Shown: positions 3,650-24,644, numbered from the stretch's first letter. The stretch: 64,000 nt of DNA from Saprospiraceae bacterium (GCA_020627535.1 JAHDGU010000001.1:164670-228669); one strand, 5' to 3'. Notes: generated from the letters alone by a model not told the origin. Program-made: numbers and translations.

Positions 3650-3729
3650 CATGCCTGAAATACGTTGACCTTAATGGAAAATGGCTGATGAGACTTTGGA
3701 AAGAAACTCAATCACACAATCAGTCGCCG

Positions 3730-3747: not shown

Positions 3748-3783
3748 TGCAGCTCGACTTGAAGCGCTGTACCTTGGTACTTC

Positions 3784-6755: not shown

Positions 6756-6852
6756 AGGACTACTGGTTCAGACCTACAAGATAGTTTTATTATTTGGAGT
6801 GCGAAACGGTGTTCTTATTCCTCAATTGGCCAGCCCGATCCTGCGAAGGCGA

Positions 6853-7086
6853 CTATGAAGCCAAAGAATACTTCGCCAATAGATTTTGTAAAAGGGCTTC
6901 GCGTACGATGCCTGCCACATTGCGTACCTGTAGTTTTTGCATGATCTTCTTGCGATGCGACTTGACGGTCTCGTCACTGATGTAGAGTCTCTGTGCGATT
7001 TCCTTGGTGCTACACTCTTGGACAATGAGCTCAATCACCTCTGATTCTCTTGTGCTTAGGCGGGTTTCGTGATTTTGAATTCTCAT
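6853..7086 (-). CDS. Stand-alone LuxR-family HTH transcriptional regulator (77 aa)
   Basis: The protein carries the LuxR HTH motif LSTRESEVIELIVQECSTKEIAQRLYISDETVKSHRKKIMQKL. It lies immediately upstream of the TPR kinase on the same strand. Confidence 0.75.
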   Translation of the reverse strand: MRIQNHETRLSTRESEVIELIVQECSTKEIAQRLYISDETVKSHRKKIMQKLQVRNVAGIVREALLQNLLAKYSLAS

Positions 7087-7138
7087 GGTGATTTTCTTTT
7101 CTCAGGATAAAGGTTTGATTCTCTGACTTGTCAATCAA

Positions 7139-7154
7139 CTACATGATGATGTAG
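7139..7154. promoter_or_regulatory. CTACAT-GATG-ATGTAG inverted repeat about 50-60 bp upstream of the orphan LuxR gene start (7086, minus strand)
   Basis: Same motif family as 3730-3747. It lies in the promoter region of the LuxR-then-TPR-kinase transcription unit. Confidence 0.55.
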
Positions 7155-7518
7155 CGAGCGCATCAGTCCTTGACGCATCTGACGCTGAAGTCTGCCCGAA
7201 GTGCGGTTGGGAAAAACTGTCTAATGTCAATCGTGTTGAAAACGGCGAATGGTGCAAGATAGATAGCACCAGGAGCATAGGTATGCCAATAGGACGCTAG
7301 TAAGAGATCTCCAAAGAGTCCTGAAACCTCCATCTCGGGTTATAAATCCAGAAGAGTCTGTTGCATTAGTTCTGGAATAGATTTGTCCAAAACTATCCTA
7401 GCCAAGTTCAGTTCATAAGAGCTTCTGATGCATCGATTCTCATGGTCAGACCGACGGTTTTTGAAGCATACATTTTATCCCCATCTATGTCTGTAGAGAG
7501 TCAAGAAAAAGCGGCATC

Positions 7519-10068
7519 TTGATGCTATCTTTAGAAGTAATGAGATACGCTATTGTTGCTATTTTTCTTGCCTATTTTTCTGACCTCAGTGCTCAAGAAG
7601 AACTGCTTGTTCATCGACTCAATCAAGAGCTTGCTTCAGGAGTTTGCTCAGATTTGCAGTTTGAAGTTTCTTCCTATTACCAGAATTCCAAGAGCAAGAT
7701 CCAATACTTGTATGCCTATCCCTTTATTCAGGGCATACGAATTGCCAATCACCAAGTCCAGTTGGTCGCTGACGAAAAAGGGCAGTTGATTCACAGTCAT
7801 CTTCTCACGTGTGATTGGGATGATTCTCAGTCAGAGCATCTGAGAGGTATGGAAGAGTCTCTGTGGCAATATATCCAGTCGAAAGAGTATGATGTCGATC
7901 TGAGCGCGTATTCAGCTCAGCTTTCACAGGCCAAGTGGGAAGTTGAGAATCCCTCGGAGATCCTAGAGGAGATGCAGGCAGAAAAGGTCTATTATTTGAC
8001 ATCGACAGAAGTACGAGACTCAGACGGGTCTAGTTCTTTGCAATTTTCATTGAGAGCGGCCTACGAAATCCATATTCGTGAAAGCTCAGGAAATCACTGG
8101 TGGAACGCGATCGTGAGTGCTAGCGATGACGAAATTCTGCAAGATCAAGATCTTGTCTTGCACTGTGAGTTTCATCATGTCAAGGCTCCGAATCATGATT
8201 GTGGCCATGATCATTCAGAAAATCTTCAGGCGACGATCCCCAATTCATACAGAGTTCTACCCCTATATGTGGAATCACCATCACACGGTGATTTTACCTT
8301 GGAGGTGGATCCAGCAGATTTGGACGTAAGTCCCCTAGGATGGCATGATGACGGTACGACGAGCTACACGGATACACGGGGCAACAATGTGGACGCCTAC
8401 GAAGATCGAGATGCCAACAATGCTCCTGGATACAGACCAGATGGTGGAGCAGACCTTGAGTTTGATTTCTCTTTTGATCCCAATAGCCCTCCGATCAACA
8501 GTGAGGATGCGATTATCACCAATCTCTTTTATTGGAACAATCTGATGCATGATGTATGGTATCGATATGGTTTTGATGAGGCATCAGGAAACTTCCAAGA
8601 GGACAATTTCGGCAATGGCGGGATAGCAGGAGACTATGTAAGAGCAGAAGCTCAAGATGGATCCGGTACCAATAATGCCAACTTCAGCACACCGACAGAT
8701 GGTGGCAATCCTAGGATGCAGATGTTCCTCTGGACTGGCGTGGCCCAGCTCGAGATTACCAATCCTTCGAGCAGTGCAGGATTCTACAACTACAGCGCAG
8801 CAGGATTTGGCCCGTCAATCAATAGCAATATATCTGGTAACATCATCCTAGCATATGATGCCAATCCGGACAGTTCGCAAGCTTGTGGTGCAATTGTAAA
8901 TAGCGCGGAGGTCAATGGAAATATCGCCTTGGTAGATCGTGGAGCCTGCTTTTTCGAGACCAAGGTCAACAATTGTGAAGCTGCTGGTGCGATCGCTGTC
9001 ATTGTATGTAATAATCAGCCGGGTGCAGGGACATTCGGTATGGGAGGTGTGGATACGATACCTGACCCAGGCATTCCGTCTATAATGATCAGCTACGAGG
9101 ATTGTCAGACTATCCGGATGGATCTTGACAATGGACTGGCCGGGACGATTGAGAGTGAATCCATTGCTTTTGACTCGGATCTAGACAATGGGATTATCTG
9201 CCACGAATACGGGCATGGCATCAGTATACGTTTGACGGGTGGTGCGGGGACCAATAGCTGTCTAGGCTCTGCCGAGCAAATGGGTGAAGGCTGGTCAGAT
9301 TACTTCGGTCTTGTGATGTCCCAAAAGCCTGGTCATACTCACGATCTGCCTCGTGGTATCGGTACCTATGTGCTCGGGCAGGATACACTGGGATCTGGAA
9401 TCAGGCCGGCAGAGTACTGTACGGATTTTGCAGTGAATGACTTTACCTACGACGATATCGACCAGGTCTCTCAGCCACATGGTGTAGGATTTGTCTGGTG
9501 TACCATGATCTGGGATATGACATGGGCACTAGAGAACCACTACGGCTATGAGCCCGATATCTTCAATGATTCTAGTAGTGCTGGGAATATTGTTGCTTAT
9601 CACCTAGTAATGGAAGGACTAAGACTACAGGCATGCAATCCTGGATTTGTGGATGGAAGAGACGCTATATTGATGGCAGATTCGATTCTCTACAACAAGG
9701 AACACGAATGCATCATATGGAATGCGTTTGCACGACGTGGACTAGGCTTTAGTGCAGATCAAGGCTCAGCGAATAATCGGAGCGACGGGGCGGAAGCTTT
9801 TGACCTGCCAACTGGCTGTGATGCTTTGAGCTATGAGGAGCTATTTGTCATTGGTCCCAATCCTTGTGATGGCGACAATCTAGTAATTGAAGATCCCATC
9901 ACGATGGATTCTACTTACAGAGCCAAGTTTTTGATAGAGAGTAATGCCACCATCGGCTCTGGTCTAGATATTATCTATCAAGCTGGGCAGTCGATAGAGC
10001 TAGATACCAATTTTACGGTAACTACTGGTGCCTTGTTTGAGGCGAGGATCGATCCTTGTCAGGATTGA
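7519..10068 (+). CDS. Secreted M36 (fungalysin-family) zinc metalloprotease with FTP propeptide, PA-domain insert and a probable T9SS C-terminal domain
   Basis: The signal peptide MRYAIVAIFLAYFSDLSAQ is present. The zinc motif HEYGHGISIRLTGG...MGEGWSD matches the fungalysin HEYTHG...RLTGG...GEGWSD pattern. A PA-like segment reads NGNIALVDRGACFFETKVNNCEAAGAIAVIVCNN. The last about 80 aa look like a Por secretion tail. Confidence 0.85.
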   Translation: MMLSLEVMRYAIVAIFLAYFSDLSAQEELLVHRLNQELASGVCSDLQFEVSSYYQNSKSKIQYLYAYPFIQGIRIANHQVQLVADEKGQLIHSHLLTCDWDDSQSEHLRGMEESLWQYIQSKEYDVDLSAYSAQLSQAKWEVENPSEILEEMQAEKVYYLTSTEVRDSDGSSSLQFSLRAAYEIHIRESSGNHWWNAIVSASDDEILQDQDLVLHCEFHHVKAPNHDCGHDHSENLQATIPNSYRVLPLYVESPSHGDFTLEVDPADLDVSPLGWHDDGTTSYTDTRGNNVDAYEDRDANNAPGYRPDGGADLEFDFSFDPNSPPINSEDAIITNLFYWNNLMHDVWYRYGFDEASGNFQEDNFGNGGIAGDYVRAEAQDGSGTNNANFSTPTDGGNPRMQMFLWTGVAQLEITNPSSSAGFYNYSAAGFGPSINSNISGNIILAYDANPDSSQACGAIVNSAEVNGNIALVDRGACFFETKVNNCEAAGAIAVIVCNNQPGAGTFGMGGVDTIPDPGIPSIMISYEDCQTIRMDLDNGLAGTIESESIAFDSDLDNGIICHEYGHGISIRLTGGAGTNSCLGSAEQMGEGWSDYFGLVMSQKPGHTHDLPRGIGTYVLGQDTLGSGIRPAEYCTDFAVNDFTYDDIDQVSQPHGVGFVWCTMIWDMTWALENHYGYEPDIFNDSSSAGNIVAYHLVMEGLRLQACNPGFVDGRDAILMADSILYNKEHECIIWNAFARRGLGFSADQGSANNRSDGAEAFDLPTGCDALSYEELFVIGPNPCDGDNLVIEDPITMDSTYRAKFLIESNATIGSGLDIIYQAGQSIELDTNFTVTTGALFEARIDPCQD

Positions 10069-10073
10069 GTATA

Positions 10074-10991
10074 TTATCTATAGAGTTCGAAAATACTCGC
10101 ATCCACCCAGTACAGATCTTGATCACTCGTGTAAAAAAAGTACTTACCATCCGGTGTCACGTAAGGACATAGTTCATGCTTGCTTGTATTGATGAGAGGA
10201 CCCATCGAAACGGCTTCAGACCAGAGGCGATCTTCATTTCTGAAGCTGATGTAGAGATCGCCTTGACCAGAGCCATCTCTCCGTATCGAGCAAAATATGA
10301 GATATGATTCATCAGGTGCCACAAACACATCTGCCTCATACCGCGCTGTATTGATACTGTCGCTCAGTCTCTCAGGTTTTAAAAACTTGTGTCCGTCCCA
10401 CTGGGAGCGATAAATATCCATCGCATAGCTGGGAGCCTCAGGTGCTAGATCTCGAGACGAAAAGTATAGGCTGCCATCACTGGTAAAAGAGCTGTAGTAT
10501 TGGTCAAGATGATTGTTGATAGGAGCACCAAGATTGATGGGATCGGACCAGTGATCTCCTTCTCTGGTAGCGTACCATAGATCGATATCACTTTGCCCCT
10601 CCTTGGCTTCCTTTGGACGATTAGAGATGAAATATAGCCGATCTTCTTGAGGAGAGAGCATCGGGTCATTGTGCCCAAAATTTTCCAGAGCAAAAAGCTG
10701 AGTTTCTTCAGACCAACTGCCTTGAGAAAATCTCCGATGATATATTTCAGTCACACCGTTATTGTCTACGCCGAAGTAGAGGTCTTCTCCATTTTTCGAA
10801 ATGGTGCAGCCAAATTCATATCGATCAGGTAACGAGATGATTCCTGGGGCAAATATCATAGGGGTATCACGTGGAGCAATTTGACCTAAGTATTTTACCT
10901 TCTCTGTTTTGTTATTTTGCTGGACTTGATCTTGACAGCACAATGTTGCTATCATGCCTAGAATTAAAAGAAGGAATAGAGCAACTCTCAT
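10074..10991 (-). CDS. Secreted or lipoprotein TolB-like (PD40/WD40-like) beta-propeller repeat protein
   Basis: The signal peptide is MRVALFLLLILGMIATLCC. Propeller blades repeat as ...YF(S/T)S.RDG..DLY.... Confidence 0.55.
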   Translation of the reverse strand: MRVALFLLLILGMIATLCCQDQVQQNNKTEKVKYLGQIAPRDTPMIFAPGIISLPDRYEFGCTISKNGEDLYFGVDNNGVTEIYHRRFSQGSWSEETQLFALENFGHNDPMLSPQEDRLYFISNRPKEAKEGQSDIDLWYATREGDHWSDPINLGAPINNHLDQYYSSFTSDGSLYFSSRDLAPEAPSYAMDIYRSQWDGHKFLKPERLSDSINTARYEADVFVAPDESYLIFCSIRRDGSGQGDLYISFRNEDRLWSEAVSMGPLINTSKHELCPYVTPDGKYFFYTSDQDLYWVDASIFELYR

Positions 10992-11003
10992 CTTGGTTTT
11001 GAT

Positions 11004-12164
11004 TTATATTGCAGCAAAGCCCCTCTCCAAATCCTCAATAATCACCTTCACATCCTCCAGCCCAATACTCAAGCGATACAGATTCCAAGGATGCTGCTCC
11101 TCTGCTGGTGCAGACGCATCCCAGAAGGTCACCAGCGGTATGATCAAGGATTCATATCCTCCCCAGCTCACAGCAATCCGAATGTGCTCGAGGGCATCAG
11201 CAAATGCTTCTGCCTCCTCTCGCGTGCCTAGTTGAAGCTCAAAGCTGAAGAGTCCTGTGCTTCCAGACATTTGCTGGCAGGCGAGATCATACTGAGGATG
11301 AGAGGAATGTCCTAGATGGTGCACCGCAGATACCTTCTCATGAGATACAAGGTAGTCTACCACCTTCTCAGTTGTTTCTTGTATCCTTTTCATACGCACA
11401 GGCAAGGTCCTGAGTCCTCTCAGGATCAGACTCGCGTCATGAGGCGACATCACTGCACCAAATGTCATATAGCCCTTGTAGAAGATGTGATCAATGAGCT
11501 CCTTGGATCCCATCACTGCTCCAGCGACCACATCGCTATGACCTGCAATGTACTTGCTGATGCTATGCGTCACAAGATCCACGCCAAGCTCTGCAGGATT
11601 TTGGAAGAGTGGAGTAGCATAGCTATTATCGAGCGTAGTGAGAATGTCATTTTTTTTGGCCCAGTCACAGGCAGCCTTGATGTCTTGCAGATGGAAGTAC
11701 ATGCTATTGGGGCTCTCGAGGATCAGCATGCGTGTGTGATCAGTCTTCGCCGCCATGATTTCTTCCATAGATCGGCCATCGACGAAGCTATGGCTTACGC
11801 CAAAATCCTCAAGAATATTGATCAATAGCTTATTGGTCCATGAGTATGCTCCTTTGACACAAATCACATGGTCACCCGCCTTCAGAAAACTGCAAATCGT
11901 CGCACTGATCGCAGCGATTCCACTGCTGAAGACTAGACAGGACTCCGTCTTCTCCAGAGCGGCAAGTTTTTGACACAATAGCACCTGACTGGGATTGTTC
12001 CCTCTGGTGTAGAGTGTACTATCCGCTTCCGCTAAAAAAGCCAGTCGAAAACTCTCGACACTGTCAAAAGCAAAGTTGCTCGTCTGGTAGATTGGCGGTA
12101 CGATGCTGCCATACGGATCAAGTGCATTTTCCTTAGGATCAAAGAGGCCGGACATAAGATTCAT
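11004..12164 (-). CDS. Cys/Met-metabolism PLP-dependent enzyme (cystathionine gamma-synthase / beta-lyase / Met gamma-lyase family)
   Basis: The N-terminal motif PPIYQTSNFAF and the PLP-lysine motif SISKYIAGHSDVVAGAV are both present. Length is 386 aa. Confidence 0.85.
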   Translation of the reverse strand: MNLMSGLFDPKENALDPYGSIVPPIYQTSNFAFDSVESFRLAFLAEADSTLYTRGNNPSQVLLCQKLAALEKTESCLVFSSGIAAISATICSFLKAGDHVICVKGAYSWTNKLLINILEDFGVSHSFVDGRSMEEIMAAKTDHTRMLILESPNSMYFHLQDIKAACDWAKKNDILTTLDNSYATPLFQNPAELGVDLVTHSISKYIAGHSDVVAGAVMGSKELIDHIFYKGYMTFGAVMSPHDASLILRGLRTLPVRMKRIQETTEKVVDYLVSHEKVSAVHHLGHSSHPQYDLACQQMSGSTGLFSFELQLGTREEAEAFADALEHIRIAVSWGGYESLIIPLVTFWDASAPAEEQHPWNLYRLSIGLEDVKVIIEDLERGFAAI

Positions 12165-12239
12165 ATTGTGGAACCTAAATCTAGCAGATTCTCAGGGAAG
12201 GGGTGTTGGTTGATAGTTAAGGGTTTCGTGAACCGAGGA

Positions 12240-12587
12240 CCGTGAACCGTGGACCGAAGTGATGTTTGCTGAGCGCGCCCGCCTGCCTTTGGTAGGTCTC
12301 GCTAGAGCTTTATGCGTCCTCGTACTGAGAAGGATGAACTGGAGTTGGAACTTGGGACAAACCGTTTCTCGAGTGAGCTAGTCAATCGATGCACAAATTC
12401 ATAAAAGCAATGAATCTCTGCAAAAGCCCTAGAATTCAACGAAGCCAAAGCCCAGCGTATAGCATGCAAGAGGTACGATCAAAAAGCTGCTCTGCGAACG
12501 AACAATCGTGGCACGAATAATAAACAACTGTCACCTGTCAACTATCAACTGTCAACCGCTCGACGGTTTACGGTCCACGGTTCACGG
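12240..12587. repeat. Perfect 17-bp inverted repeats (CCGTGAACCGTGGACCG at 12240-12256; reverse complement at 12571-12587) bracketing a 314-bp non-coding segment
   Basis: Read directly from the sequence. Each inverted repeat lies inside a longer heptad-periodic array (12203-12258 and 12528-12593). Confidence 0.8.
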
Positions 12588-12597
12588 TAAACCTCCC

Positions 12598-15264
12598 TCA
12601 CTCCACCTTCACGATCTTCTGCACACAAAGTGCACTATTGCCAGGGTCATACACCTTCACGAAGAACAATCCATTGCCCAGTAGTTCTGTATTGATATTG
12701 ACCTCTGTTCCTACATTGGGGAGCTCTTGGATGAGTGTACCACTCGCATCCAGTATTTGAAGTCGATATGATGGAAGATCTCCTTGGATCCTGAAGTAGT
12801 TGTCCACAGGATTGGGGAAGACTTCGATGCAGCTAATTGTCGCCTCTATCTGTCTCGAACTGGTAGCAACTTCACTGCAATCATAATCTCCACTGAGTGC
12901 ACCGTAGACGACAGCTGCTGTGACACTGTTTTGGTTGATGGTAAACTCGCCGGTGAGAGGACTTGGGCGCTGTTCGAAGAATCGCTCATGTCCTGGCCAC
13001 TCTTCGATGGCAGGATATACATTTTGATCAGGCCAGTGATGCTCCCAGGGACCGACATTGAAGAGTCCTCCACGTCTCCATGGACCATATGGTACAATAC
13101 CGGCTTTGATTTCGCCTTCTCCCGTAGCCCAGCTATCGAGATGCAGCAGACCTTGAGGGCTTTTTTCGCCGATACCAGTGATCCAAGTCATACCTAGAGG
13201 ATTGGTCCCGAGGAAGTAGTCTGCCGTAGTGTGTATGTACTTGAGGTAGTCAGCTGCCTTGGTAGGATCAGTGCCTTGCAGTATGGCGGACATAAACACT
13301 GCTTCCGCGACAAATGGCGTCGTGCCGTGCCCTACGAGCATAGGGAAGTAGTGGTTCCCTCCCCAGCGACAAGCGCGGAGATCAACATTGTCAAGAATAA
13401 GGAAATCCGCAGTCTGTATCATTTTGTCGCTGACGATCGTGCGTTGACTGGCATCTTGGTTGTCTGCATCGGTCATGAGGTAGATCAGAGCACCGTAGGC
13501 CTGCTCACCTTGGACATTTTCCCAAAACTCGAGCCCCGCCTGATCCCAGCTCTGCTCAAAATCTTGCTGATAGAAATCATTTTCTGTGAGTCTGTAGAGA
13601 GCCGCGGAGGCGAAGCTTCGCTGCCAGATCATCTCGTAGATATGACAAGCAAAGTCAGGGTCATATTGCGCATTGGCCCAGGCATATGCATCGATGGCTT
13701 CTTGCTCCCAGTCGATCTCCTCCGGATCAGTCCAGCCATTAGTCTCTAGGAGGTAGGCGATCTGCGCGGCCACGCCTGCGTAGTAGTAGCTCATGATCGG
13801 ATCAGGAGCGGATACGACCCAGATGCGATCTGTATCTTCCCAGCTGCCTCGGATAATATCATCATCGCCGAGATCGTAGCCCCAGAGATCACCAAATATC
13901 CGTCCACCTGGCACACCTCCTGTCGTGTAGCCTTTCTCCTCTGTTTCTTGCTTGAGATGATAGTAGAATCTCGGCAACCATCTCGCTTCATCAAAGACAT
14001 CTGGTAGTCCATTGCCACTCTCTGCGATCTGTAGCTGGCCATCGACGAAGTTGTCTCCGTACAACTCTAGCAGTATCAGTAGCTCCACAGGGACTTCCAT
14101 ATGTCTGATGTACGCGTCCCAGTCGCCAGCGTCCTGGTACCACCCAGCAGTCTCGATATCTCCGAGGATGCCAGCATCCCAAGTGGCCTTGTCATCCTCT
14201 GAGGCATCCTCGTCTGTCACATCGCAGATAGATACGTCACTATACTTCAGCTGCCCTGCAAATCCGGGTGTCACAGCAGGATTGTGTGGCGCTGGACGTG
14301 TGGCTTCCGTGTGCGGATGATCCAGAGCAATTCCACTGCGCTGATTGTAGAGGCCCTTCATCACCAGTTCGAATGCAGGCCTGAGACCATTGCAAGCAAG
14401 GTCAAACTCATGAGATCTGCCGATACCATCAACCACGAGGTAGTAGGATCCAGGCGTATTGTAAGCACTAAAATCACACTCGTATACCTCAGCACTATTG
14501 AAATTTTGATTCGGGGTTTCATCGCTATCATCGACAAATGTCTCTTGCGTCATCTCATCCTTGCGAAAAGTCAGATTTCCTGTGAAGACTGCATCGCCTG
14601 ATGTCGCATCGATAAGACGAAATTCATTGCCAGCGTAGCTGCTAAGATCCAACTTGCCGCCGTCTCCCATCCAATGATATACGTAGGCATACTTGAGCTC
14701 TGCATTGGTAGAGTAGGCTAGATTGTTGACGTGTATAGCAGGAGAAAGGAAGCTGTTTTCATCATATTTTAAGATCCATTCTGTCTGATCTGGACTGATG
14801 GCTTGATCTATGTTGATCTCGTAGGTCTTACCCGGTTCTAGTGCAATAGGTAGCTCCAGATACAGCCAGTGTTCCTTGGCATGATCAGGCTCTTGATTGG
14901 CACATCCCCAGACACCATAGTAGTCCAGGAGCTCCCAGCCTTGACACACATCTAGGAATTCTGTAGGCTTGCTTTTTCGCGAAAGCGATACTGGACTCTC
15001 CCCACTGCCATAAGCTGCATCATCAGGCGAACTGATCATGTAATTGTTGAGGTCTTCGGCAATGGGTATATCCAGCAGATCTACGAAGATCTCTCCACTA
15101 TTTTTAGGTTCACCGGCTTTGGGCTGTAACACATAGCCTTCATCGACATGGATCAAGAGGATCTTATCTGTGAGCATGGTCAGCTCCACCTCACTTTGGG
15201 CCATGATCTGGTCGGTCAGGCAGGTCAATAGGATAAGGACTAGAGCAGATTGTAGGACTTTCAT
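12598..15264 (-). CDS. Glycoside hydrolase family 9-like enzyme with N-terminal Ig-like (CelD_N) domain and T9SS C-terminal sorting domain
   Basis: A signal peptide is present. The Ig-like segment reads YYLVVDGIGRSHEFDL. The GH9-type motif is AGWYQDAGDWD. The C-terminus VFPNPVDNYFRIQ...GLFFVKVYD...VQKIVKVE has the Por_Secre_tail pattern. The ORF-track start at 15294 is probably an N-terminal over-extension; MKVLQSALVLILL is the likelier start. Confidence 0.6.
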   Translation of the reverse strand: MKVLQSALVLILLTCLTDQIMAQSEVELTMLTDKILLIHVDEGYVLQPKAGEPKNSGEIFVDLLDIPIAEDLNNYMISSPDDAAYGSGESPVSLSRKSKPTEFLDVCQGWELLDYYGVWGCANQEPDHAKEHWLYLELPIALEPGKTYEINIDQAISPDQTEWILKYDENSFLSPAIHVNNLAYSTNAELKYAYVYHWMGDGGKLDLSSYAGNEFRLIDATSGDAVFTGNLTFRKDEMTQETFVDDSDETPNQNFNSAEVYECDFSAYNTPGSYYLVVDGIGRSHEFDLACNGLRPAFELVMKGLYNQRSGIALDHPHTEATRPAPHNPAVTPGFAGQLKYSDVSICDVTDEDASEDDKATWDAGILGDIETAGWYQDAGDWDAYIRHMEVPVELLILLELYGDNFVDGQLQIAESGNGLPDVFDEARWLPRFYYHLKQETEEKGYTTGGVPGGRIFGDLWGYDLGDDDIIRGSWEDTDRIWVVSAPDPIMSYYYAGVAAQIAYLLETNGWTDPEEIDWEQEAIDAYAWANAQYDPDFACHIYEMIWQRSFASAALYRLTENDFYQQDFEQSWDQAGLEFWENVQGEQAYGALIYLMTDADNQDASQRTIVSDKMIQTADFLILDNVDLRACRWGGNHYFPMLVGHGTTPFVAEAVFMSAILQGTDPTKAADYLKYIHTTADYFLGTNPLGMTWITGIGEKSPQGLLHLDSWATGEGEIKAGIVPYGPWRRGGLFNVGPWEHHWPDQNVYPAIEEWPGHERFFEQRPSPLTGEFTINQNSVTAAVVYGALSGDYDCSEVATSSRQIEATISCIEVFPNPVDNYFRIQGDLPSYRLQILDASGTLIQELPNVGTEVNINTELLGNGLFFVKVYDPGNSALCVQKIVKVE

Positions 15265-15406
15265 TGTTGCAAATGATTTGAACTTCACTTGCATGACGCA
15301 TTGCTCAGATCATACCCTACGACAAGTCAGGAAAGATTTATTTTTTGATGGAGACCTTGCCTCAAGGATTGATCTAGGCAAAGTAAAACTGCGAAAATGC
15401 TCTGGG

Positions 15407-15955
15407 TTATTTTCCGTGATTCGCCTGCCAGTCTTTGACAATCTGTGGTGGCTCTTCTCCTTCCGCGACAAAGATGAGTGACGCAGAATTCATACAGTAT
15501 CTCAAGCCTGTGGGCTCTGGCCCATCTTTGAAGACATGCCCCAGATGAGATCCACTTCCGCTATCCACTACTTCTATCCTGACCATACCGTAGCTTTTAT
15601 CGACGACCTCGACTACGGCATCTTCCTCAATCGGCTCGTAAAAACTTGGCCAACCAGTACCTGAGCGAAATTTCGTCTCTGAGCTGAATAAGGGCTGACC
15701 AGTGGCAGCAGAGTAGTAAATGCCTTTCTTCTTATTGTCCCAATACTCACCTGTGAATGCACGCTCAGTACCATGCTTGCGCAAAATGTAAAACTGCTCA
15801 TCCGTCAGCTGTTGCTTCCACTCTTCATCCGTCTTTTGGACTGGGTAGTTTGTATGATCATCAGACGAAGTGCTTTTTGTCTGACAAGACACGGGTAAGA
15901 ATGCAAGACAAAGACCAAGAACCAGTGAAAATCTCATAATACGCTTGTTTGACAT
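15407..15955 (-). CDS. msrB: Peptide-methionine (R)-S-oxide reductase MsrB, lipoprotein form
   Basis: The SelR motifs RYCMNSASL and GHVFKDGP are present. The lipoprotein-type signal is [26 protein letters not shown] trimmed the ORF-track start at 16039 to the internal Met. Confidence 0.8.
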
Positions 15956-16060
15956 CATAATTCGAAAAACCAAGTTTTTGTTGTCCAGTCCCATGGTAGC
16001 ACCAAGACAAAGTCTCCAATCTATCCATGCTTCGGTCAACGTATTTCAGGTATGGAGAAA

Positions 16061-16125
16061 CTATCAACTATCAACCAACAACCAACAACCAGTCCACGGT
16101 CTACGGTCCTCGGTTGACGAAACCA
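16061..16125 (+). repeat. Heptanucleotide-periodic repeat element: CTATCAA x2, CCAACAA x2, CCAGTCC, ACGGTCT, ACGGTCC, TCGGTTG, ending ...ACGAAACC
   Basis: The 7-nt periodicity is continuous over 65 bp. It is homologous to 12528-12593, 18677-18767 and, inverted, 12203-12258. Confidence 0.8.
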
Positions 16126-16196
16126 AATACCGAACTCGGGGGATTGCGCCCATCTGATTCCACTCAGTTCTTTGCGTCATAAATCAAAGCTACACT

Positions 16197-18485
16197 ATGA
16201 TGTATTCTAGATTCAATCTCATTCTTGCCTTATCACTCTTGACCATTGGCCTTTCTGCACAGGCTATCGACGACGCTGAGATCCGTGGTGACGGTATCGT
16301 CGTGCCTGCTGTGGATCGGCTGGCGGTCGTTGCCCCATCCACTGGTCAGCTCGTCTTCGATGTCAATACGCTCAGCTACTGGATGCACGATGGTAATGTG
16401 TGGCGGGCTGTAGGAGACAATATTGTCGGTAACATGATTCAAGACGCGGATGGAAGCACCAGTGTGCAGACAGAACCTGGCGGACTAGAGCAAGTCCTGA
16501 TCGAGGTCGATGGTCGAGATCGGTGGAGGTTTTTGGGACATGCGCTAGAGCCTCTCATTCCCAGTAGTTCCATATTCATGGGACAGTCAGCAGGTGCCGC
16601 TAGTTCTGATACAGCTTACAACAATGTCGGCATCGGAAATTTCTCGCTGATCTCGGTCAGCTCAGGAAGATGGAATGTAGGCATCGGCCATAATGCCCTG
16701 AGCGACAATACATCAGGAGAAAAAAATGTTGCCATCGGTTCTTCCGCAATGCTTGGCAACAAGGCGAGCTCCGACAATGTCGCCATAGGTAATAGTGCAT
16801 TACTCTCGGTCGACTCCTCACAGTTCAATGTCGCTATCGGCTCTTATGGACTCCATAGCCTAGACAAAGGTCTTCGCAATGTAGCCATCGGAACCTCTAG
16901 CCTCTATGAATCCGAGACAGGAAAGCTCAACACCTCCATCGGCTATGCTGCAGGACACAATACCCTCGGAGATGGCAATGTATTTCTCGGCCACGAGGCT
17001 GGTTTCAATGAACTAGGAAGTAACAAACTCTACATCGCCAACTCCAATGCCGATAGCGCCGATGCGCTGATCTACGGTGACTTTTCCAGTTCTGAACTCT
17101 ACATCAATGGAGATCTGCAGTCTGATCAGTTCACCACAGATCAGATCACGACCACTACCATAGACGTCGACGACAAACTCACCGTCAAGAGCGACTCTCG
17201 CCTGTTTGGTCATCTCTTTCTACACGCCCTCCAGGGCCTAGGGCAAAGTGGCACAGCCTATATCCAAGCCAGAGATCACACTGCTGCTACGAGTGTTGGT
17301 CTACAGTTTCGCGTGACGGACAATGGTGTGGTTGATGACGCCCTCGCGATCAATAAAGATGGTCAAGTCCTGTTTCAGAACAAGGAGATCTACTTCGGTA
17401 CGAGTCTCTTGATTCACACCACAGGTAGCAACAACTTCTTTGCAGGATTTGCTGCTGCCCCTTCAGCCTCGGGTTCCTCCAATACAGCGGTCGGTTCGCA
17501 AGCAGCTCAGAGCCTTTCTACGGGCTCTCAGAATTCAGCAATCGGCCGGCTTGCAGGTCAGGACCTCTCCAGCGGATTTGGAAATACACTATTGGGTTTT
17601 TCTGCGGGTAAAGACTTGACGACCACGACTGGCAACACCATGATCGGTAACAATGCAGGTGCTTCGATCAATAACGGGGGCTCCAATACCATCATCGGTA
17701 GCCAAGCAGGATGGAACACCAGCTTTTCGTCAAGCAACACCTTCATAGGATTTGATGCGGGCAGGTACACCGCTGGAAGCAAAAACACATTCCTTGGGAC
17801 CAATGCTGGTGAGACCACTTCTGGTGGTCCCAGCTACGATAATAGCATAGCTATCGGATACAGTGCTGTGGCCAATTGCCATAACTGTGCAGTGATCGGC
17901 AATGATGGATCAGAGGATGTTAATCTCGGTATCGGTATCTCGGCTCCTCAGTCCGTCATCCATGTCAAGCAGCGCAACTCAGGCACAGATCGCGGTATCC
18001 GTATAGAAGACACCGATGGGACATACTGGAATACCTACATCGACGCATCTAATGATTACAACTTCGCTCACGACGGCACACTTCGTGCTTACATACAGGA
18101 TGGTGCTGGTGCCTTTGTCATCACTTCTGATCGCAGCGTCAAGACAGCCATCAGCTCTGTCGGAGACGTATTGCCACGGGTGATGGGGCTTTCGCCCAAA
18201 TGGTACAGATACAACAACATGTCACCCGATCAACCCAAGGTCATGGGCTTCATCGCACAAGAAGTGGAGGAGCAGTTTCCTGGCATCGTACGCCAAAAAG
18301 GAAAGCTCAAGACCCTCGCATACGATGACTTTGCCATCATCAGCATCAAAGCCATCCAAGAACTCAATGACAAGGTCAACGAAAAGGATTCAAGGATCAC
18401 AGAACTAGAAGAGCAAAATGAGGAATTGGCCAAGCGACTAGAGAGATTGGAAGCGTTGGTACTCAGTGATCCATTGACTGACTAA
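16197..18485 (+). CDS. Secreted tail-fiber-like protein: YadA/Hep_Hag-like NxAIG repeat region plus a C-terminal peptidase S74 intramolecular-chaperone auto-processing domain
   Basis: The Sec signal peptide is MMYSRFNLILALSLLTIGLSAQA. There are more than 20 repeats of N(V/T)AIG..AL. The C-terminal SDRSVKTAISSVGDVLPRVMGLSPKWYRY...VMGFIAQEVEEQFPGIV...LAYDDFAIISIKAIQELNDKV...ELEEQN matches the endosialidase / tail-spike CIMCD pattern, including the Ser-x4-Lys dyad. Confidence 0.7.
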   Translation: MMYSRFNLILALSLLTIGLSAQAIDDAEIRGDGIVVPAVDRLAVVAPSTGQLVFDVNTLSYWMHDGNVWRAVGDNIVGNMIQDADGSTSVQTEPGGLEQVLIEVDGRDRWRFLGHALEPLIPSSSIFMGQSAGAASSDTAYNNVGIGNFSLISVSSGRWNVGIGHNALSDNTSGEKNVAIGSSAMLGNKASSDNVAIGNSALLSVDSSQFNVAIGSYGLHSLDKGLRNVAIGTSSLYESETGKLNTSIGYAAGHNTLGDGNVFLGHEAGFNELGSNKLYIANSNADSADALIYGDFSSSELYINGDLQSDQFTTDQITTTTIDVDDKLTVKSDSRLFGHLFLHALQGLGQSGTAYIQARDHTAATSVGLQFRVTDNGVVDDALAINKDGQVLFQNKEIYFGTSLLIHTTGSNNFFAGFAAAPSASGSSNTAVGSQAAQSLSTGSQNSAIGRLAGQDLSSGFGNTLLGFSAGKDLTTTTGNTMIGNNAGASINNGGSNTIIGSQAGWNTSFSSSNTFIGFDAGRYTAGSKNTFLGTNAGETTSGGPSYDNSIAIGYSAVANCHNCAVIGNDGSEDVNLGIGISAPQSVIHVKQRNSGTDRGIRIEDTDGTYWNTYIDASNDYNFAHDGTLRAYIQDGAGAFVITSDRSVKTAISSVGDVLPRVMGLSPKWYRYNNMSPDQPKVMGFIAQEVEEQFPGIVRQKGKLKTLAYDDFAIISIKAIQELNDKVNEKDSRITELEEQNEELAKRLERLEALVLSDPLTD

Positions 18486-18676
18486 GTGATACTTCTCGCG
18501 CGCGTTCCTTTTTTCTTGCTGTGCCTGTCTACCTCTGGCAGGCGCGTCCCCGCGCCAGCCACTGCGAGGCAAGTCCCTCATGTCAAGAGGGATTTAGGGA
18601 GTTCTCACTACACAGTTTTCAGCCAGCAAGGAACCCACCCAAACGCCCTCAAGAAAAAGGGCTTACACCAATTTTT

Positions 18677-18767
18677 CTATCAACGCCCAACTCCCAATCA
18701 GTCCTGAATTCACGGTCCACGGTTCTCGGTCCACGGCTCACGTCCTCGCTCTCCAGTCCACAGTCTT
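18677..18767 (+). repeat. Heptanucleotide-periodic repeat element: CTATCAA, CGCCCAA, CTCCCAA, TCAGTCC, ..., ACGGTCC, ACGGTTC, TCGGTCC, ACGGCTC ...
   Basis: Thirteen consecutive heptads in the same orientation as the 16061 copy. The two copies flank the tail-fiber-like gene. Confidence 0.75.
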
Positions 18768-18804
18768 GATAGCTATCGGGAACGATTTACGACCGTCAGC
18801 CATG

Positions 18805-21800
18805 TCATTCATCCAAAGGCATTACTAGTCTTATACGATAACCATCTTCTCGGTCAATCTTCAGAGTGCCTCGGATCTGCTCAGCGCGCAAGCGCATATT
18901 GCTGATGCCGAGACCATCTGTGCTGAGAAGTTCGTGCTTGGAGCCATTGTCATGGACAGTATAGGATAGTCGAGGGCCTTCTGCTACTAGACGGATGGCT
19001 ACTGCATTTCCGTCTGAGTGCTTCTGGATGTTGGTGATGGCTTCTTTGTGGATGAGATAGAGCTGCTGCCGCAGGGTGGGGCTCATGCTTTTTGAGCTAT
19101 CGATACCTGTGACCTGAAAGTCTACGGCCCAGCGCTGTTCTGGCAGTCGCTTTTGGGCGAAAGCTCGCATCCGATCGATGAGATTCTCGTACTTGTCTTT
19201 GCGAGAATCTATGAGCCAAACGGTATCGCGCATCCTCTCCATCGCATCACGACTCATCTCATTCATCTCGGCGAGTGATTCCTTGTCTTCTTCTTTGGCC
19301 GTCATGCTCATGATCTCGGACTGCATGGCCAGACCTGATAAGATGCTACCTACATCATCATGCAGATCACTGCTGACTTTGACGCGCCACTGATTGAGCG
19401 CTTTTTCCTTATTCACTTTTGCGCGAAAGCGCGCATAAAATACACCAAATACGATCCCACAAGCAAGTAGCAAGCCCAGCGCCTGTACCCAGCGACGATG
19501 ATACCAGACTGCAGGTCGATAAAAATCAATATGATGCTCAGCGTACTGCTCACCCTGTGGATCTGCACTGGCTCTGAGATGCACAGTGAATGCCCCTGTA
19601 GGTAGTGAGATCAATTCCAGCTCCGATCTCGTATCGTATCGACTCCAGCTGCCTTCTTCGCCATTGAGACTGTAAGCGTACCAGCGATCGTCAGTGATGC
19701 TGGGAGAGCTGTACCTCATGGTCAAGAGTTCGTCAGATGGGAGTAGTTTGATGGGCTCAGTCCGAGACATGAGATCCGAAAATACACTGCGGTACTCATC
19801 GAACTTACTGTTGTAGATACTCACATTGTGCACAAATAGATCGGATATACTTTCCTTCGGCGAGGCAAAAGGCAATATATCTGGATTGATGCGGAAGAGC
19901 CCCTCTACGCTCCCAAGATACGTATGTCCATCGCTTGCGCTAAAATGTGCATTGCGATTATATTCTACTTGACTGAGAGGATGACCATCGGGAAGTCGCT
20001 CGATGAGACCAGTGTCCATGCGATAGATCAATAGTCCTTGCCCCGTACCAAGTAGCAGCCTAGAGTCTGCCAAAGGATGGATGAAATAAATGGCGTCGTG
20101 TACATCTTCACCGTCCTGCTTACGGGCAAATCCCGGCAGGAGCTCACCTTGATTTTCTCCTTCTCGGATGACAGCTAGGCCAAAGTGTGTACCGTAATAC
20201 AGATCACCTTTAGCTTGATGCAGGGAGGTGACAATCGTATTTTTTCTGGTCAGCCCTAAGTCCTCTCTGATCATTTGCTTGGTCATATGTCCACGACGAT
20301 CTAGCCAGTGGATCCCTCGCAGGTCTGTAGCTAGTATGAAGGCGCTCTCGCTTTGATCCTGATTGCGAATGAGTGCATTCCCTATGATCGGTTTGTCAAA
20401 GAGGGCTTCTTGGATAATGGTATCCCTCATACTCTCGAGCTGTGTCTTGAATATCCTGGCATTGCGATCATAGGTCCAGAGAGTGTCCTTTTCGTGGAGA
20501 TGAAGGCTCATAGACTTCTTGAGAGACCCAGGGAGGCGACTCAGCTGGAGGTCGCTGAGTCGATACCTGTAGTTGTCCCAGATGAGATGTGTCGCAGAAG
20601 TCGACAGGCTAAAGGCTTCATTGTAGGTGTTCTGAGGATTCAGACGCAGTGACCTAAAGCTCTCTGTGCCAGCTTCGCATACGCTGACATCGGTATAGTA
20701 GCTCACATATACATTTCCCTCGGAGTCCTCACATATCTGTCGCACGCTCGGATATGGCTCTGTCTGCGATACTGGAACTCGCCAGTCATCTAGAGAAGCT
20801 GCCACTGGCTCTGCCAGATATAAGGTACTATTGAAGACTAGAATGTAGGAATCAGCACCATAGCTGATGACCTGCTGCAAGGTCTCATTCCTTTTTTTGA
20901 GATCAAAGCGATCATTGAGTTCCGCGAGCTCAGATGTATAGTCCTCTGTGGTTTTTGTAGTGCTATTGTACAGCCAGACGCGCTGTTTGAAGTCACTGAG
21001 CCAGACCTCTTGTGGAAAAGTGAATGTGTTGTAGCTGCTTCCTTCAAATTCAGCGTTTTTGATCTCGATAGGTTTGACGATTTGGCGGATCGGATCTACA
21101 CTGAGGCTCTTTTCTTCGCTCGCGCGCATGATGTGCAAGCCGGGTTGATTGGTCAATTCAAAGCTGCCATAAGCTGGCAACGTCATCAGCTCGTTGCCCA
21201 TGCGATCTAGAGCGATCAAGGAGAGATCCTTGAAGATCCAAATAGTGTCCTGGAGGACTCTCGGTGGAGAGGAACTTCCAACTGGTAACTTCGTCTTGAA
21301 GAGTAGCGAGGTATCCTCAGTCATCTCATATACATGGCCAAGGTCGGACTTCCTATGACGGGCAATGAAATAGGATTTTCTTGTGGCAATATCCTGGCAC
21401 AAATAAAGCAGAGCGAATTTGTCCTCCAATCTTATTTCCTTCATCACCTGCCGTCGATCTGTGTCCCAAAGACAGAGCTTGTAGTGGAAGTTGATGTTGT
21501 CAAAGAAGATCAGCCATATCCTTGAGCTATCAAGGCCTGCCATCGACAAGAATCCATAGCCGTCTTGATTGATTTGCAAGGTGTCGCCTGCTGCCGTGAA
21601 GTTGTATCTCGTCGCTCGCTGACCGTCAAAGCAGATAAGATTTTCTTGTGCAGCATACCACAGGAAACCATGACGGTCCCAGTGTGGAGGATTGGACGAG
21701 ACGATCCAGAGACCTTCATCCTCAGGACTACTGAGTAGGCTGATATTATAACTGAGCTCTTCATCATTCTGCGCGTGTGCAATCTCTGGGATCAGAGACA

Positions 21801-21876
21801 AGACAAGTAGGATCAAGATGTAAGGACTGAGTCTCATGCTGTAAGAAGCGGTGTGAAGATATAGTGCAGTTCCCAA
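18805..21876 (-). CDS. Sensor histidine kinase with large periplasmic beta-propeller / Y_Y_Y-type sensor domain (HisKA_3 plus HATPase_c)
   Basis: A signal peptide is followed by about 750 aa of propeller-like repeats, a transmembrane segment (VQALGLLLACGIVFGVFYA), an H-box (LHDDVGSILSGLAMQSE) and an ATPase domain. The C-terminus is paralogous to the kinase at 4422..6755. Confidence 0.8.
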   Translation of the reverse strand: MGTALYLHTASYSMRLSPYILILLVLSLIPEIAHAQNDEELSYNISLLSSPEDEGLWIVSSNPPHWDRHGFLWYAAQENLICFDGQRATRYNFTAAGDTLQINQDGYGFLSMAGLDSSRIWLIFFDNINFHYKLCLWDTDRRQVMKEIRLEDKFALLYLCQDIATRKSYFIARHRKSDLGHVYEMTEDTSLLFKTKLPVGSSSPPRVLQDTIWIFKDLSLIALDRMGNELMTLPAYGSFELTNQPGLHIMRASEEKSLSVDPIRQIVKPIEIKNAEFEGSSYNTFTFPQEVWLSDFKQRVWLYNSTTKTTEDYTSELAELNDRFDLKKRNETLQQVISYGADSYILVFNSTLYLAEPVAASLDDWRVPVSQTEPYPSVRQICEDSEGNVYVSYYTDVSVCEAGTESFRSLRLNPQNTYNEAFSLSTSATHLIWDNYRYRLSDLQLSRLPGSLKKSMSLHLHEKDTLWTYDRNARIFKTQLESMRDTIIQEALFDKPIIGNALIRNQDQSESAFILATDLRGIHWLDRRGHMTKQMIREDLGLTRKNTIVTSLHQAKGDLYYGTHFGLAVIREGENQGELLPGFARKQDGEDVHDAIYFIHPLADSRLLLGTGQGLLIYRMDTGLIERLPDGHPLSQVEYNRNAHFSASDGHTYLGSVEGLFRINPDILPFASPKESISDLFVHNVSIYNSKFDEYRSVFSDLMSRTEPIKLLPSDELLTMRYSSPSITDDRWYAYSLNGEEGSWSRYDTRSELELISLPTGAFTVHLRASADPQGEQYAEHHIDFYRPAVWYHRRWVQALGLLLACGIVFGVFYARFRAKVNKEKALNQWRVKVSSDLHDDVGSILSGLAMQSEIMSMTAKEEDKESLAEMNEMSRDAMERMRDTVWLIDSRKDKYENLIDRMRAFAQKRLPEQRWAVDFQVTGIDSSKSMSPTLRQQLYLIHKEAITNIQKHSDGNAVAIRLVAEGPRLSYTVHDNGSKHELLSTDGLGISNMRLRAEQIRGTLKIDREDGYRIRLVMPLDE

Positions 21877-21940
21877 TCACCCCATCTCGGTATGGTGTCC
21901 GCGCTAGAGAAGCTCTACATTTGAAACTGAATATCTCCAG

Positions 21941-22570
21941 ATGAAGCTACACATCATAGAAGACAATCTCAAGATCAGAGCTCACCTCGAGACCTTTCTT
22001 GGCCATCAAGAGGATATCGCCTGTGTGCAAAGCCACACAAGTGTAGAGTTTTTCTTGAGTGCTGTGGATTCTGGTCAAGCCAAGCCAGATGTGATTCTAT
22101 TGGATATCGGGCTTCCTGGGATGTCTGGTGTAGAAGGTATCCCGGAGATCACTCAGCGACTTCCCGAGACAGATATCATCATGCTCACCACCTATGAGGA
22201 GGAAGAAGTCATACTCAATGCGCTCTGTGCCGGTGCTCATGCCTATCTCAGCAAGAAGAGTAGTCTGCAAGAGATCCATACTGCGATCAAGGTGGTACGG
22301 GCTGGAGGAAGCTATATGTCGCCCAATATTGCTCGCCAGATCGTGAGACATTTTGGCGGAAGCCGTACACCTAAAAAAGCCGAAATCCTCACCGAACGCC
22401 AGCTCAAAGTCCTCAAACTACTTGTGGATGGATTGACCTACGGAGCGATTGCCAAAGAGCTTTTTATTTCTGCAGAGACGGTCAAGACGCATGTCAAGAA
22501 CATCTACAAGAGTCTCCACGTGAGCAACAAGGCCGAAGCCATCCAGAAGTATATGCGAGGAGAGATCTAG
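21941..22570 (+). CDS. NarL/FixJ-family response regulator (REC plus LuxR HTH), paralogous to the regulator at 3784..4425
   Basis: The receiver motif LLDIGLPGMSG...IIMLTTYEE and the HTH TERQLKVLKLLVDGLTYGAIAKELFISAETVKTHVKNIYKSL are present. It is divergent from the kinase at 18805..21876. Confidence 0.9.
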   Translation: MKLHIIEDNLKIRAHLETFLGHQEDIACVQSHTSVEFFLSAVDSGQAKPDVILLDIGLPGMSGVEGIPEITQRLPETDIIMLTTYEEEEVILNALCAGAHAYLSKKSSLQEIHTAIKVVRAGGSYMSPNIARQIVRHFGGSRTPKKAEILTERQLKVLKLLVDGLTYGAIAKELFISAETVKTHVKNIYKSLHVSNKAEAIQKYMRGEI

Positions 22571-23346: not shown

Positions 23347-24644
23347 TAGTCTTTGATGACCAAGAGATACTTATTTTTCTTGCCATTTTCTATCATGATA
23401 TACTTGTTGTGTATCAGATCAGTGGACTCGATCAGGCGATCCGGATCTAGCGTCTTGACCTTGTTGATAGAGATGGCATTGCCCTTGAGAGCACGCCGAG
23501 CCTCGCTACCGCTACTGGTGATATCCGTGGCTTCCGCCAAAATGTCTACGATGTTTTTTCCGATCATCTGATCTGATGACATCTCGTAGTGTTGGATCTC
23601 GAGCTTGATGATTTTGAATGAGTCTACACTCAATTCTCTGAGTTGCTCTTCGCTGCTTTTTCTACTAAACAATAGAGACGTCGCATCCATGGCCGATTTT
23701 GTCTCATCAGCGCTATGTACCTGAGTAGTGATCTCCTCGGCAAATTGCTTCTTGATTCCAGCAGGATCATTCTCTAGCTCAGCGATCATCTCCTCCATCT
23801 CAGATCTGCTTCGATCGGAGAAGTATTTGATAAATTTTGGGATGTCCGCATCCGCTGCGTTGATCCAGTATTGGTAAAACTTGTACGGACTTGTCAAGCT
23901 TGGATCAAGCCAGATATTTCCTTCTGTAGATTTGCCAAATTTGCTACCATCTGCCTTGGTCAGCAATGGGGTAGTCACAGCGTAGGCCTTGCCTTCATTC
24001 ATCTTTCGCACGAGCTCGGTACCACTCGTGATATTGCCCCACTGATCCGATCCACCCATTTGGAAGCAGCAGTCATATCCTTTGTGAAGACAGACGTAGT
24101 CATAGGCCTGTAACAGCTGGTAGGAGAATTCTGTGTAGGATATTCCGGTCTCGAGACGAGTCTTCACCGAGTCCTTGGCCATCATGTAGTTGACCGTGAT
24201 ATTCTTGCCTACGTCGCGGAGAAATTCCAGCGCACCAAGGCCTTTGTAGAAGTCATAGTTGTTGATCAGCAACGCTGCATTCTTACCGCTATCAAAGTTG
24301 AGATACTTGGATGCTTGTGCTGCTTGATGCTTGAGATTGTGGTCTAGATCCTCATAACTCAATAGAGATCTTTCTTTGTCTTTGCCACTAGGATCTCCGA
24401 TGCGACCGGTGGCTCCACCCATCAGCACGATCGGTCGATGTCCATGCTGCTGAAAGAGCTTTAGGATCCTGAGCTGCACATAGTTACCTATGGTCAAAGA
24501 AGGCGCTGTAGGATCGAAACCTATGTAACCCGTCTGCATCCCTGATGCCAACTTCTCCTCCGCTCCAGGAGACTTGTCGAAGAGCATTCCTCTCCACTCT
24601 AGTTCTTCTATAAACCCCATGTGATTGACTGCGCTTTCGCGCAA
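23346..24644 (-). CDS. tyrS: Tyrosine--tRNA ligase
   Basis: The class I HIGH-region variant (TIGNYVQL), the KMSKS-type KFGKS motif and a C-terminal S4 domain are all present. Confidence 0.95.
   Translation of the reverse strand: MRESAVNHMGFIEELEWRGMLFDKSPGAEEKLASGMQTGYIGFDPTAPSLTIGNYVQLRILKLFQQHGHRPIVLMGGATGRIGDPSGKDKERSLLSYEDLDHNLKHQAAQASKYLNFDSGKNAALLINNYDFYKGLGALEFLRDVGKNITVNYMMAKDSVKTRLETGISYTEFSYQLLQAYDYVCLHKGYDCCFQMGGSDQWGNITSGTELVRKMNEGKAYAVTTPLLTKADGSKFGKSTEGNIWLDPSLTSPYKFYQYWINAADADIPKFIKYFSDRSRSEMEEMIAELENDPAGIKKQFAEEITTQVHSADETKSAMDATSLLFSRKSSEEQLRELSVDSFKIIKLEIQHYEMSSDQMIGKNIVDILAEATDITSSGSEARRALKGNAISINKVKTLDPDRLIESTDLIHNKYIMIENGKKNKYLLVIKD

Follow-up and report, generated by a model that had tools for sequence, protein, structure and literature searches.

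Tandem arrays of heptanucleotide units have been reported as the most abundant class of long simple sequence repeats (LSSRs) in most prokaryotic genomes, and polymerase slippage has been proposed as their cause (Mrazek et al. 2007, as summarized in PMC4679880 and PMC4692102). By the account in PMC4692102, Xanthomonas and Nostoc contain hundreds of intergenic arrays of GGGNATC-type heptamers, which vary between close species and are sometimes arranged as inverted pairs. Cyanobacterial short tandemly repeated repetitive (STRR) sequences are 7-bp repeats capable of forming hairpins; they have no assigned function, and a contribution to transcript stability has been mentioned as an idea (PMC2670836). 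Closer to the organism considered here, TAACTGA and other heptamer assemblages were described in the intergenic DNA of Beggiatoaceae, Cyanobacteria and five Bacteroidetes (MacGregor 2015; PMC4679880); those of Bacteroidetes are missing from the spacers of close relatives and include near-identical intergenic regions at two loci (PMC4679880). A functional precedent is the (ATCTTTC)n repeat of hmw1A and hmw2A in Haemophilus influenzae, a phase-variable repeat of the 5' untranslated region (UTR) that supplies one arm of a hairpin cut by RNase III (PMC12721329, PMC8262952). Here, we describe five arrays of 7-nt units in a 64,000-nt stretch of the metagenome-assembled genome of a Saprospiraceae bacterium (Bacteroidota; JAHDGU010000001.1:164670-228669; hereafter the window), which is the part of that genome examined for arrays. 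We argue, with a probability of about 0.72, that they are compound heptanucleotide simple sequence repeat (SSR) arrays of the LSSR/STRR kind, generated by slippage, specific to their lineage and tolerated only outside genes.

Compound heptamer arrays in the window

When identities between positions i and i+p were counted in 49-nt segments for periods (p) of 4-15, period 7 emerged as the sole strong outlier in the window. It reached 30-38 of 49 identities at exactly five sites, against a background of 12.2 +/- 3.3, and the only other periods to exceed 26/49 were 14 (twice 7) and, in keeping with codon structure, 9, 12 and 15. Tandem Repeats Finder (TRF) returned period-7 rows at 12227-12256, 12525-12556, 12563-12588, 16059-16114 and 18709-18742, plus 3608-3645. 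The motif ACGGTNNACGGT, allowing at most one mismatch, matched 10 times where 0.88 matches were expected, and all 10 matches fell inside the four arrays reported in a first-pass annotation of this DNA. TRF, autocorrelation and motif count thus agree that 7-nt units are repeated head to tail beyond chance, the property that marks heptanucleotide LSSR/STRR-type arrays, and the period-7 observation is real and far beyond chance. All four of the intergenic stretches singled out by the annotation (arrays A-D) are confirmed, and a fifth (array E, ~3593-3648) lies outside the range that it covered. The annotation had also called the repeat strict, which fits the period and not the unit, because unit sequence varies along the arrays and no more than 2-3 identical copies follow one another. 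Contigs of two sequencing runs (SRR14415275 and SRR14415273) carry DNA of the window at 100% identity, and an assembly artefact is therefore ruled out.

Read on the C/A-rich strand, the arrays are compound. An X module (CAACTAT, CAACTGT, CAACCAA; consensus CAACTRT/CAACCAA) and a Y module (CCACGGT, TCACGGT, CTACGGT, CCTCGGT; consensus YCACGGT/CTCGGT) both recur across arrays A-D, a vocabulary shared by separate loci. In B, C and D, X is followed by Y, and the X-to-Y phase is identical despite differing numbers of units between the modules, the expected result of unit-wise gain and loss. Array B (12525-12593, plus strand) passes from the X units CAACTGT, CACCTGT, CAACTAT, CAACTGT and CAACCGC to four Y units ending in ACGGT. 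Array C (16059-16125, plus strand) consists of AACTATC twice, AACCAAC twice, AACCAGT, CCACGGT, CTACGGT, CCTCGGT and TGACGAA, and array D (18677-18767, plus strand), the most degenerate of the five, includes CTATCAA, CGCCCAA and CTCCCAA and, further on, ACGGTCC, ACGGTTC, TCGGTCC, ACGGCTC and ACGTCCT. Array A (12203-12258, minus strand) is not the plain inversion of the others for which it had been taken: on its C/A-rich strand the Y units CCACGGT, TCACGGT, CCTCGGT and TCACGAA come first, followed by ACCCTT and then by the X units AACTATC and AACCAAC, with a 1-nt phase offset at the module junction. The minus strand of A and the plus strand of C have GGTCCTCGGTTSACGAAACC in common. Array E holds X-like units only; its plus (G/T-rich) strand can be divided into about eight units (ATGTGGT, GGTTGAT, GGTTCGT, AGTTCAG, AGTTCGT, AGTTCAG, AGTTCAG, AGTTTCT), and its minus strand reads AACTCTG, AACTACG and AACCATC.

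Several other interpretations of this anatomy were considered and set aside. CRISPR repeats are 23-50 nt long and alternate with unique spacers of similar length, whereas the units here measure 7 nt and are contiguous and spacer-free, as the first-pass annotation had recognized. Nor do arrays A and B bracket the 270-nt spacer in the way terminal inverted repeats would, their module order being interleaved and not nested. That ~270-nt segment (12259-12527) contains no called gene and has no Rfam match. A small peptide was also entertained, since a frame of 21 codons that opens with ATGGAGAAAC.. runs through array C; it was rejected because the frame of the paralogous copy in E ends after 4 codons.

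The arrays belong to a known class, the long heptanucleotide repeats of SSR/STRR kind, and Saprospiraceae is an added host lineage. Their presentation as an undescribed family is therefore not borne out, given that tandem heptamer repeats have been described before (PMC4679880, PMC4692102, PMC2670836), although we found no description of these particular units, or of Saprospiraceae as host, in the literature on heptamer repeats. With LSSRs, as these are characterized in the summaries cited above, the arrays share a tandem 7-nt organization, enrichment between genes, occurrence in many phyla and variable units (GGGANTN in Xanthomonas). LSSRs also diverge between close species and in some cases occur as inverted pairs able to form stem-loops. 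In contrast to LSSRs, the arrays here are short (55-91 nt) and compound, with two or three unit types in fixed order, and are built from the units CAACTRT/CAACCAA and YCACGGT.

The resemblance to STRR sequences lies in 7-bp tandem repeats at many intergenic sites and in a potential for hairpins, which STRR sequences can form, for example, at hupS-hupL (PMC2670836). The phylum differs, however, and abundance in our case is that seen in 64 kb. Mazel et al. are said to have described the cyanobacterial STRR sequences in 1990, and STRR1-3 of heterocystous cyanobacteria reportedly have the units CCCCAGT, TTGGTCA and CAACAGT, none of which was confirmed by a literature string search. The reported STRR3 unit CAACAGT would be one base from the X unit CAACTGT, and we know of no STRR counterpart to the Y unit. 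Membership in STRR sensu stricto was rejected on the grounds of the Saprospiraceae host, the differing units and the lack of relationship between Y and the STRR units so reported.

The TAACTGA system offers a further parallel in its intergenic direct heptamers, its compound assemblages in Gramella, Aequorivita and Elizabethkingia, the lack of such assemblages in orthologous spacers when close relatives are compared, and its near-identical repeat-bearing regions at more than one locus (PMC4679880). Only the AACTG core is common to both, however, and our arrays are not immediately upstream of start codons. The hmw repeats are alike in being non-coding heptanucleotide repeats that adjoin a gene for a large surface protein, with a possible long imperfect hairpin formed with a partly complementary block. 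They differ in that the hmw repeat is perfect, comprises at least 11 units and is transcribed, cut by RNase III and variable in length, whereas the units here are heterogeneous, no length variation was seen and support from folding is weak.

A scan for (CGGTYYN)x3CGGT, covering one genome per species, revealed heptamer arrays, often compound, among the matches listed for Saprospiraceae, Bacteroidales, Flavobacteriia, Chloroflexota, Verrucomicrobiota, Acidobacteriota, Gemmatimonadota, Myxococcota, Actinomycetota and others. All comparison loci were picked by patterns of our own and therefore show occurrence, not frequency. Also among the matches listed, other Saprospiraceae carry the same Y units, as (CCACGGT)6, (AACCGTG)n and (CACGGTT)n, and a rumen Bacteroidales contig reads CAACTGT, CAACTAT, CAACTAT. 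A metagenome scan for X..Y composites yielded 40 contigs, mostly with (CAACNGT)n; the gaps are almost always 5 mod 7, indicating that these (CAACNGT)n matches are true in-phase arrays. Within the (CAACNGT)n arrays (L127-L166, from JGI metagenome contigs), N changes from unit to unit, and contig GC spans 35-68%. At 56 other loci with GC <0.55, open reading frames (ORFs) cover 27% of array bases versus 82% of all bases; heptamer arrays are strongly depleted from coding DNA. Adjacent reverse-complement pairs of arrays were found in 17 of 147 cases, against ~1% expected, an enrichment of about 12-fold in these sampled loci from many phyla. Such pairs constitute long quasi-palindromes (loci L010, L026, L047, L052, L053, L063, L079, L097, L099, L104, L109 and others). 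A Chloroflexota example has (GGACGGT)n followed by (ACCGTCC)n, and L047 has (GGGTTAA)n, a telomere-like heptamer, facing (TTAACCC)n.

Genomic setting and turnover

A greedy gene model assigns 92.5% of the window to coding sequence and leaves all five arrays intergenic; the genes called in the public assembly likewise contain none of them. Random, independent placement would give five intergenic locations with a probability of ~0.075^5, and the earlier claim that the arrays are not coding stands by both sets of gene calls. Intergenic regions of at least 100 nt number six in the first 19 kb, four of them with an array, and eight in the remaining 45 kb, all array-free.

The intergenic regions at E and C (3531-3783 and 15995-16199), each between divergent genes, are paralogous over ~200 nt, whereas their flanking genes are unrelated. 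Common to the two are a GAGACTTTG box, a 29-nt block, an array in register, GATTCCA..CTTTG and a similar CTTGGTRCT..ATGG leader. The block, AGTTTCTCCATRCCTGAAATACGTTGACC, occurs in its first copy at 3642-3670 on the plus strand (AGTTTCTCCATGCCTGAAATACGTTGACC), abutting array E, and in its second at 16034-16062 on the minus strand, abutting array C. These copies are identical at 28 of 29 positions, so the flanks have been kept between the regions, while the array units differ and form their least conserved part. Region 3531-3783 has an additional segment of ~74 nt, which holds the palindrome discussed below. The block has two copies in the 64 kb and none in JGI metagenome contigs. From their sequence, regions E and C may represent a copied promoter cassette.

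The nearest relative allows a comparison at arrays A and B. The next-closest homologues of the flanking Cys/Met enzyme have 64% amino-acid identity (relative L123), no closer relative having been found, and the GH9 and Cys/Met genes are adjacent in that relative too. Its spacer (L123 5530-5593) is 64 nt long and array-free, as opposed to 433 nt with A and B here, and no period-7 array was found in ~35 kb of unique sequence from relatives (L123-L126). Conservation in related genomes, a point raised by the first-pass annotation, thus fails at this orthologous spacer, and the arrays appear as lineage-specific additions because the spacer of the nearest relative lacks them.

The immediate surroundings of the arrays are diverse. 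Array E occupies the divergent spacer between a large PMP-like gene (start 3530, minus strand) and a response regulator gene (3784-4425, plus strand), and array A lies 39-94 nt upstream of a Cys/Met PLP-enzyme gene (11004-12164, minus strand), whose best named homologues are from Saprospiraceae; the GC content of the window is 47%. Array B starts 4 nt past the stop codon of a GH9 gene (12598-15294, minus strand), with a U-rich tract beyond it; the GH9 protein bears a Por_Secre_tail domain, the tail of the type IX secretion system (T9SS). This domain and the homologues of the Cys/Met enzyme place the host in Saprospiraceae (Bacteroidota). Array C is situated in the divergent spacer between a SelR/MsrB gene (start 15994, minus strand) and an S74-domain gene (16197-18485, plus strand), and array D between the convergent ends of the S74-domain gene (18485) and a histidine kinase gene (end 18805, minus strand). 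The 762-aa product of the S74-domain gene (Peptidase_S74, endosialidase chaperone) is therefore encoded between C and D, which have the same X-to-Y orientation, and direct repeats so placed might allow the gene to be gained or lost. A hairpin, GCCCTCAAGAAAAAGGGC, followed by TTACACCAATTTTTC (18645-18662) lies ~160 nt past the stop codon of this gene and just upstream of array D; it is plausible as a terminator, although the simple scan missed it.

Searches for other annotated features gave little. Rfam contributed no family, either at the gathering threshold across the whole window or at E <= 1 across 3400-19000, and the tRNA/tmRNA scan found none. Scans for sigma-70 promoters and intrinsic terminators placed nothing at the arrays, with totals under the shuffle expectation. 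Neither the SelR ORF (TTG start) nor ORF 61626-62648 had a record in exact look-ups. Two sets of in-frame tandem repeats elsewhere in the window are unrelated to the heptamers: one at 31868-32076 with a 66-nt period and 3.2 copies, in ORF 31226-32776, and one at 54819-55034 with 24/48-nt periods, rich in Lys/Glu/Ala, in ORF 54412-55431.

Competing explanations

The first-pass annotation had proposed that the arrays are multi-site operators for local response regulators of the NarL/LuxR (GerE) type, a reading we consider very improbable. What recommends it is position: two Response_reg+GerE regulators (3784-4425 and 21941-22570) and an orphan 77-aa GerE protein (6853-7086, minus strand) are encoded nearby, the arrays cluster in the 19 kb holding these regulators, and E and C occupy the promoter regions of divergent genes, with a conserved promoter-like block immediately downstream of them. 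However, of 66 matches in the window to TACYYMT, the NarL heptamer of E. coli, none falls inside the five arrays, and sites of the 7-2-7 form used by NarL/NarP (at most 2 mismatches) number 5 against 5.5 expected, none of them in an array. With those operators the arrays have in common only the number 7, being head-to-tail, spacer-free and without the consensus. The location of the arrays is also uneven, since B and D, two of the five, are at gene 3' ends, though E, C and A are in promoter or upstream positions, and the divergent spacer between a histidine kinase gene and a regulator gene (21838-21940) is array-free. Between the paralogous regions E and C, conservation is lowest in the array, and differing units beside preserved flanks are the opposite of what a conserved operator would lead one to expect. 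Arrays of the same type occur in many phyla, and sites repeated head to tail every 7 bp without a spacer do not suit dimeric GerE-type helix-turn-helix proteins, which bind inverted repeats. There is, finally, a better operator candidate in the palindrome CTACATGATCATGTAG, described below. Binding of another sort has been proposed for the TAACTGA repeats of Beggiatoaceae, and by analogy the arrays might be platforms for a protein that binds single-stranded nucleic acid with a heptamer footprint, such as a cold-shock or S1-like protein. The same source describes a heptamer footprint for CspB (PMC4679880), and AACTG-type cores do recur, as TAACTGA there and as CAACTGT here and in metagenomes. 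Such platforms would be expected a few nucleotides upstream of start codons, but our arrays are 39-135 nt away from them or at 3' ends, their orientation to genes is inconsistent and their units are heterogeneous, making this reading, too, highly doubtful.

Transcribed elements are the main functional rival, kept in consideration, if weakly, by the hmw precedent. The arrays would then act in a 5' or 3' UTR as cis-regulatory or contingency elements, a heptamer block pairing with a second, partly complementary one into a long imperfect hairpin that is processed (by RNase III in hmw) or that stabilizes the transcript or ends it, and changes in unit number would tune the expression of adjacent genes for surface or secreted proteins. 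Pairing is possible in B and C because X resembles the reverse complement of Y (AACTGTC versus AACCGTG), and their G/U-rich strands are predicted to fold as periodic bulged hairpins (-24.6 and -25.8 kcal/mol; z = -2.3 and -2.5). Against this, A, D and E fold no better than shuffled sequences, the z score of B drops to -0.4 in a 121-nt context, and by our calculation any two heptamer arrays have a ~40-65% chance of 5/7 complementarity in some register; as modeled, the hairpin potential is weak and inconsistent. The placement of B, 4 nt after the GH9 stop codon and ahead of the U-rich tract, would suit a transcript end, but the terminator scan called nothing at any of the arrays. Judging by a canonical Bacteroidetes -7 box (TAnnTTTG), TAGCTTTG (16192-16185, minus strand), array C would belong to the SelR 5' UTR; this is the one such box near any array, about the frequency expected by chance at this search size. 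Large proteins of secreted type are encoded next to the arrays (PMP-like, GH9 with its T9SS tail, S74-domain), yet orientation to the flanking genes is inconsistent, with a C/A-rich sense strand for A and a G/U-rich one for B. The ~12-fold enrichment of inverted array pairs, the RNase III-cut hairpin of hmw (PMC12721329) and the transcript-stability idea for STRR hairpins (PMC2670836) all lend the proposal some plausibility; the heterogeneous units, unlike the perfect hmw repeat of at least 11, and the lack of length variation between two sequencing runs (both read as consensus contigs) detract from it. Taken together, we regard a hairpin function of the hmw type as unlikely. A wider version, in which transcribed hairpins tune neighboring genes for secreted or T9SS-exported proteins through unit gain and loss and RNase III-type processing and, more broadly, a conserved putative generating enzyme or binding protein, instead of plain polymerase slippage, lies behind the cross-phylum cores (CAACNGT, GAACCGT) and inverted pairs, seems quite unlikely. 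Alternatively, each heptamer array could be the internal portion of a short non-coding element that moves or is copied from one intergenic region to another, either MITE-like (miniature inverted-repeat transposable element) or a promoter cassette. The ~200-nt paralogy of E and C despite unrelated flanking genes, the sequence shared by A and C in opposite orientation, the direct orientation of C and D around the S74-domain gene and the expansion of the A+B spacer relative to L123 would all fit. Terminal inverted repeats and target-site duplications are not evident at the arrays, however, no transposase gene is present in the immediate neighborhood, and the 29-nt block, limited to its two copies in the 64 kb and absent from JGI metagenome contigs, is lacking from A, B and D. 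We judge this origin improbable.

The palindrome named above deserves separate mention. CTACATGATCATGTAG (CGACTACATGATCATGTAGTTG), a perfect 16-bp palindrome at 3728-3749, lies 35 nt upstream of the GerE-type response regulator gene 3784-4425. Near-copies of the form TCAACTACATGATGATGT(G/A)G are located at 3579-3598, ~50 nt upstream of the PMP-like gene, and at 7135-7154, ~49 nt upstream of the orphan GerE gene, and a half-copy at 24180-24194 lies inside a gene. A palindrome upstream of a gene is the usual form of a LuxR/GerE-family operator. Judged by sequence, this element looks like a likelier candidate operator, of lux-box type, for the local LuxR/NarL-family regulators than the arrays do.

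Origin and significance of the arrays

We return to the interpretation of the arrays as slippage-generated compound heptanucleotide repeats. Growth, shrinkage and diversification would proceed by slipped-strand mispairing, one unit per step, and the phase would be kept because slippage moves in one-unit steps. Since 7 is not a multiple of 3, arrays would survive only outside genes. The vocabulary common to neighboring spacers would stem from copying between spacers, of the kind suggested by E and C, and not from selection for protein binding, and the arrays would not serve as operators of NarL/LuxR-type regulators. Any effect on the host would probably be indirect, through the length of the spacer between divergent promoters or through an imperfect hairpin in a transcript end. 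The first-pass annotation had offered a lineage-specific repetitive extragenic element as its fallback, and this is essentially supported, the arrays being confined to intergenic DNA and missing from the orthologous spacer of L123.

Several observations weigh against this interpretation. The clustering of arrays in the first 19 kb, although modest (Fisher p ~0.015), is not predicted by pure neutrality. The units now vary too much for slippage to be efficient, identical ones never exceeding 2-3 in succession, and no copy-number variation was detected: the arrays are 100% identical in the contigs of SRR14415275 and SRR14415273, which probably sample the same population and are consensus assemblies. 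In addition, the presence of the same X and Y modules in four spacers within 6.5 kb calls for a putative copying process or for selection, and so does the reappearance of units of the CAACNGT and GAACCGT types in different phyla.

For annotation, these stretches should be labeled heptanucleotide simple-sequence repeats and not regulator binding sites. Regions E and C provide a tidy example of a paralogous intergenic pair in which the array is the fast-evolving part. More generally, the arrays bear on a decades-old question, namely why 7-nt units and a few recurrent sequences dominate the long intergenic repeats of distant phyla, to which Saprospiraceae adds one more lineage.

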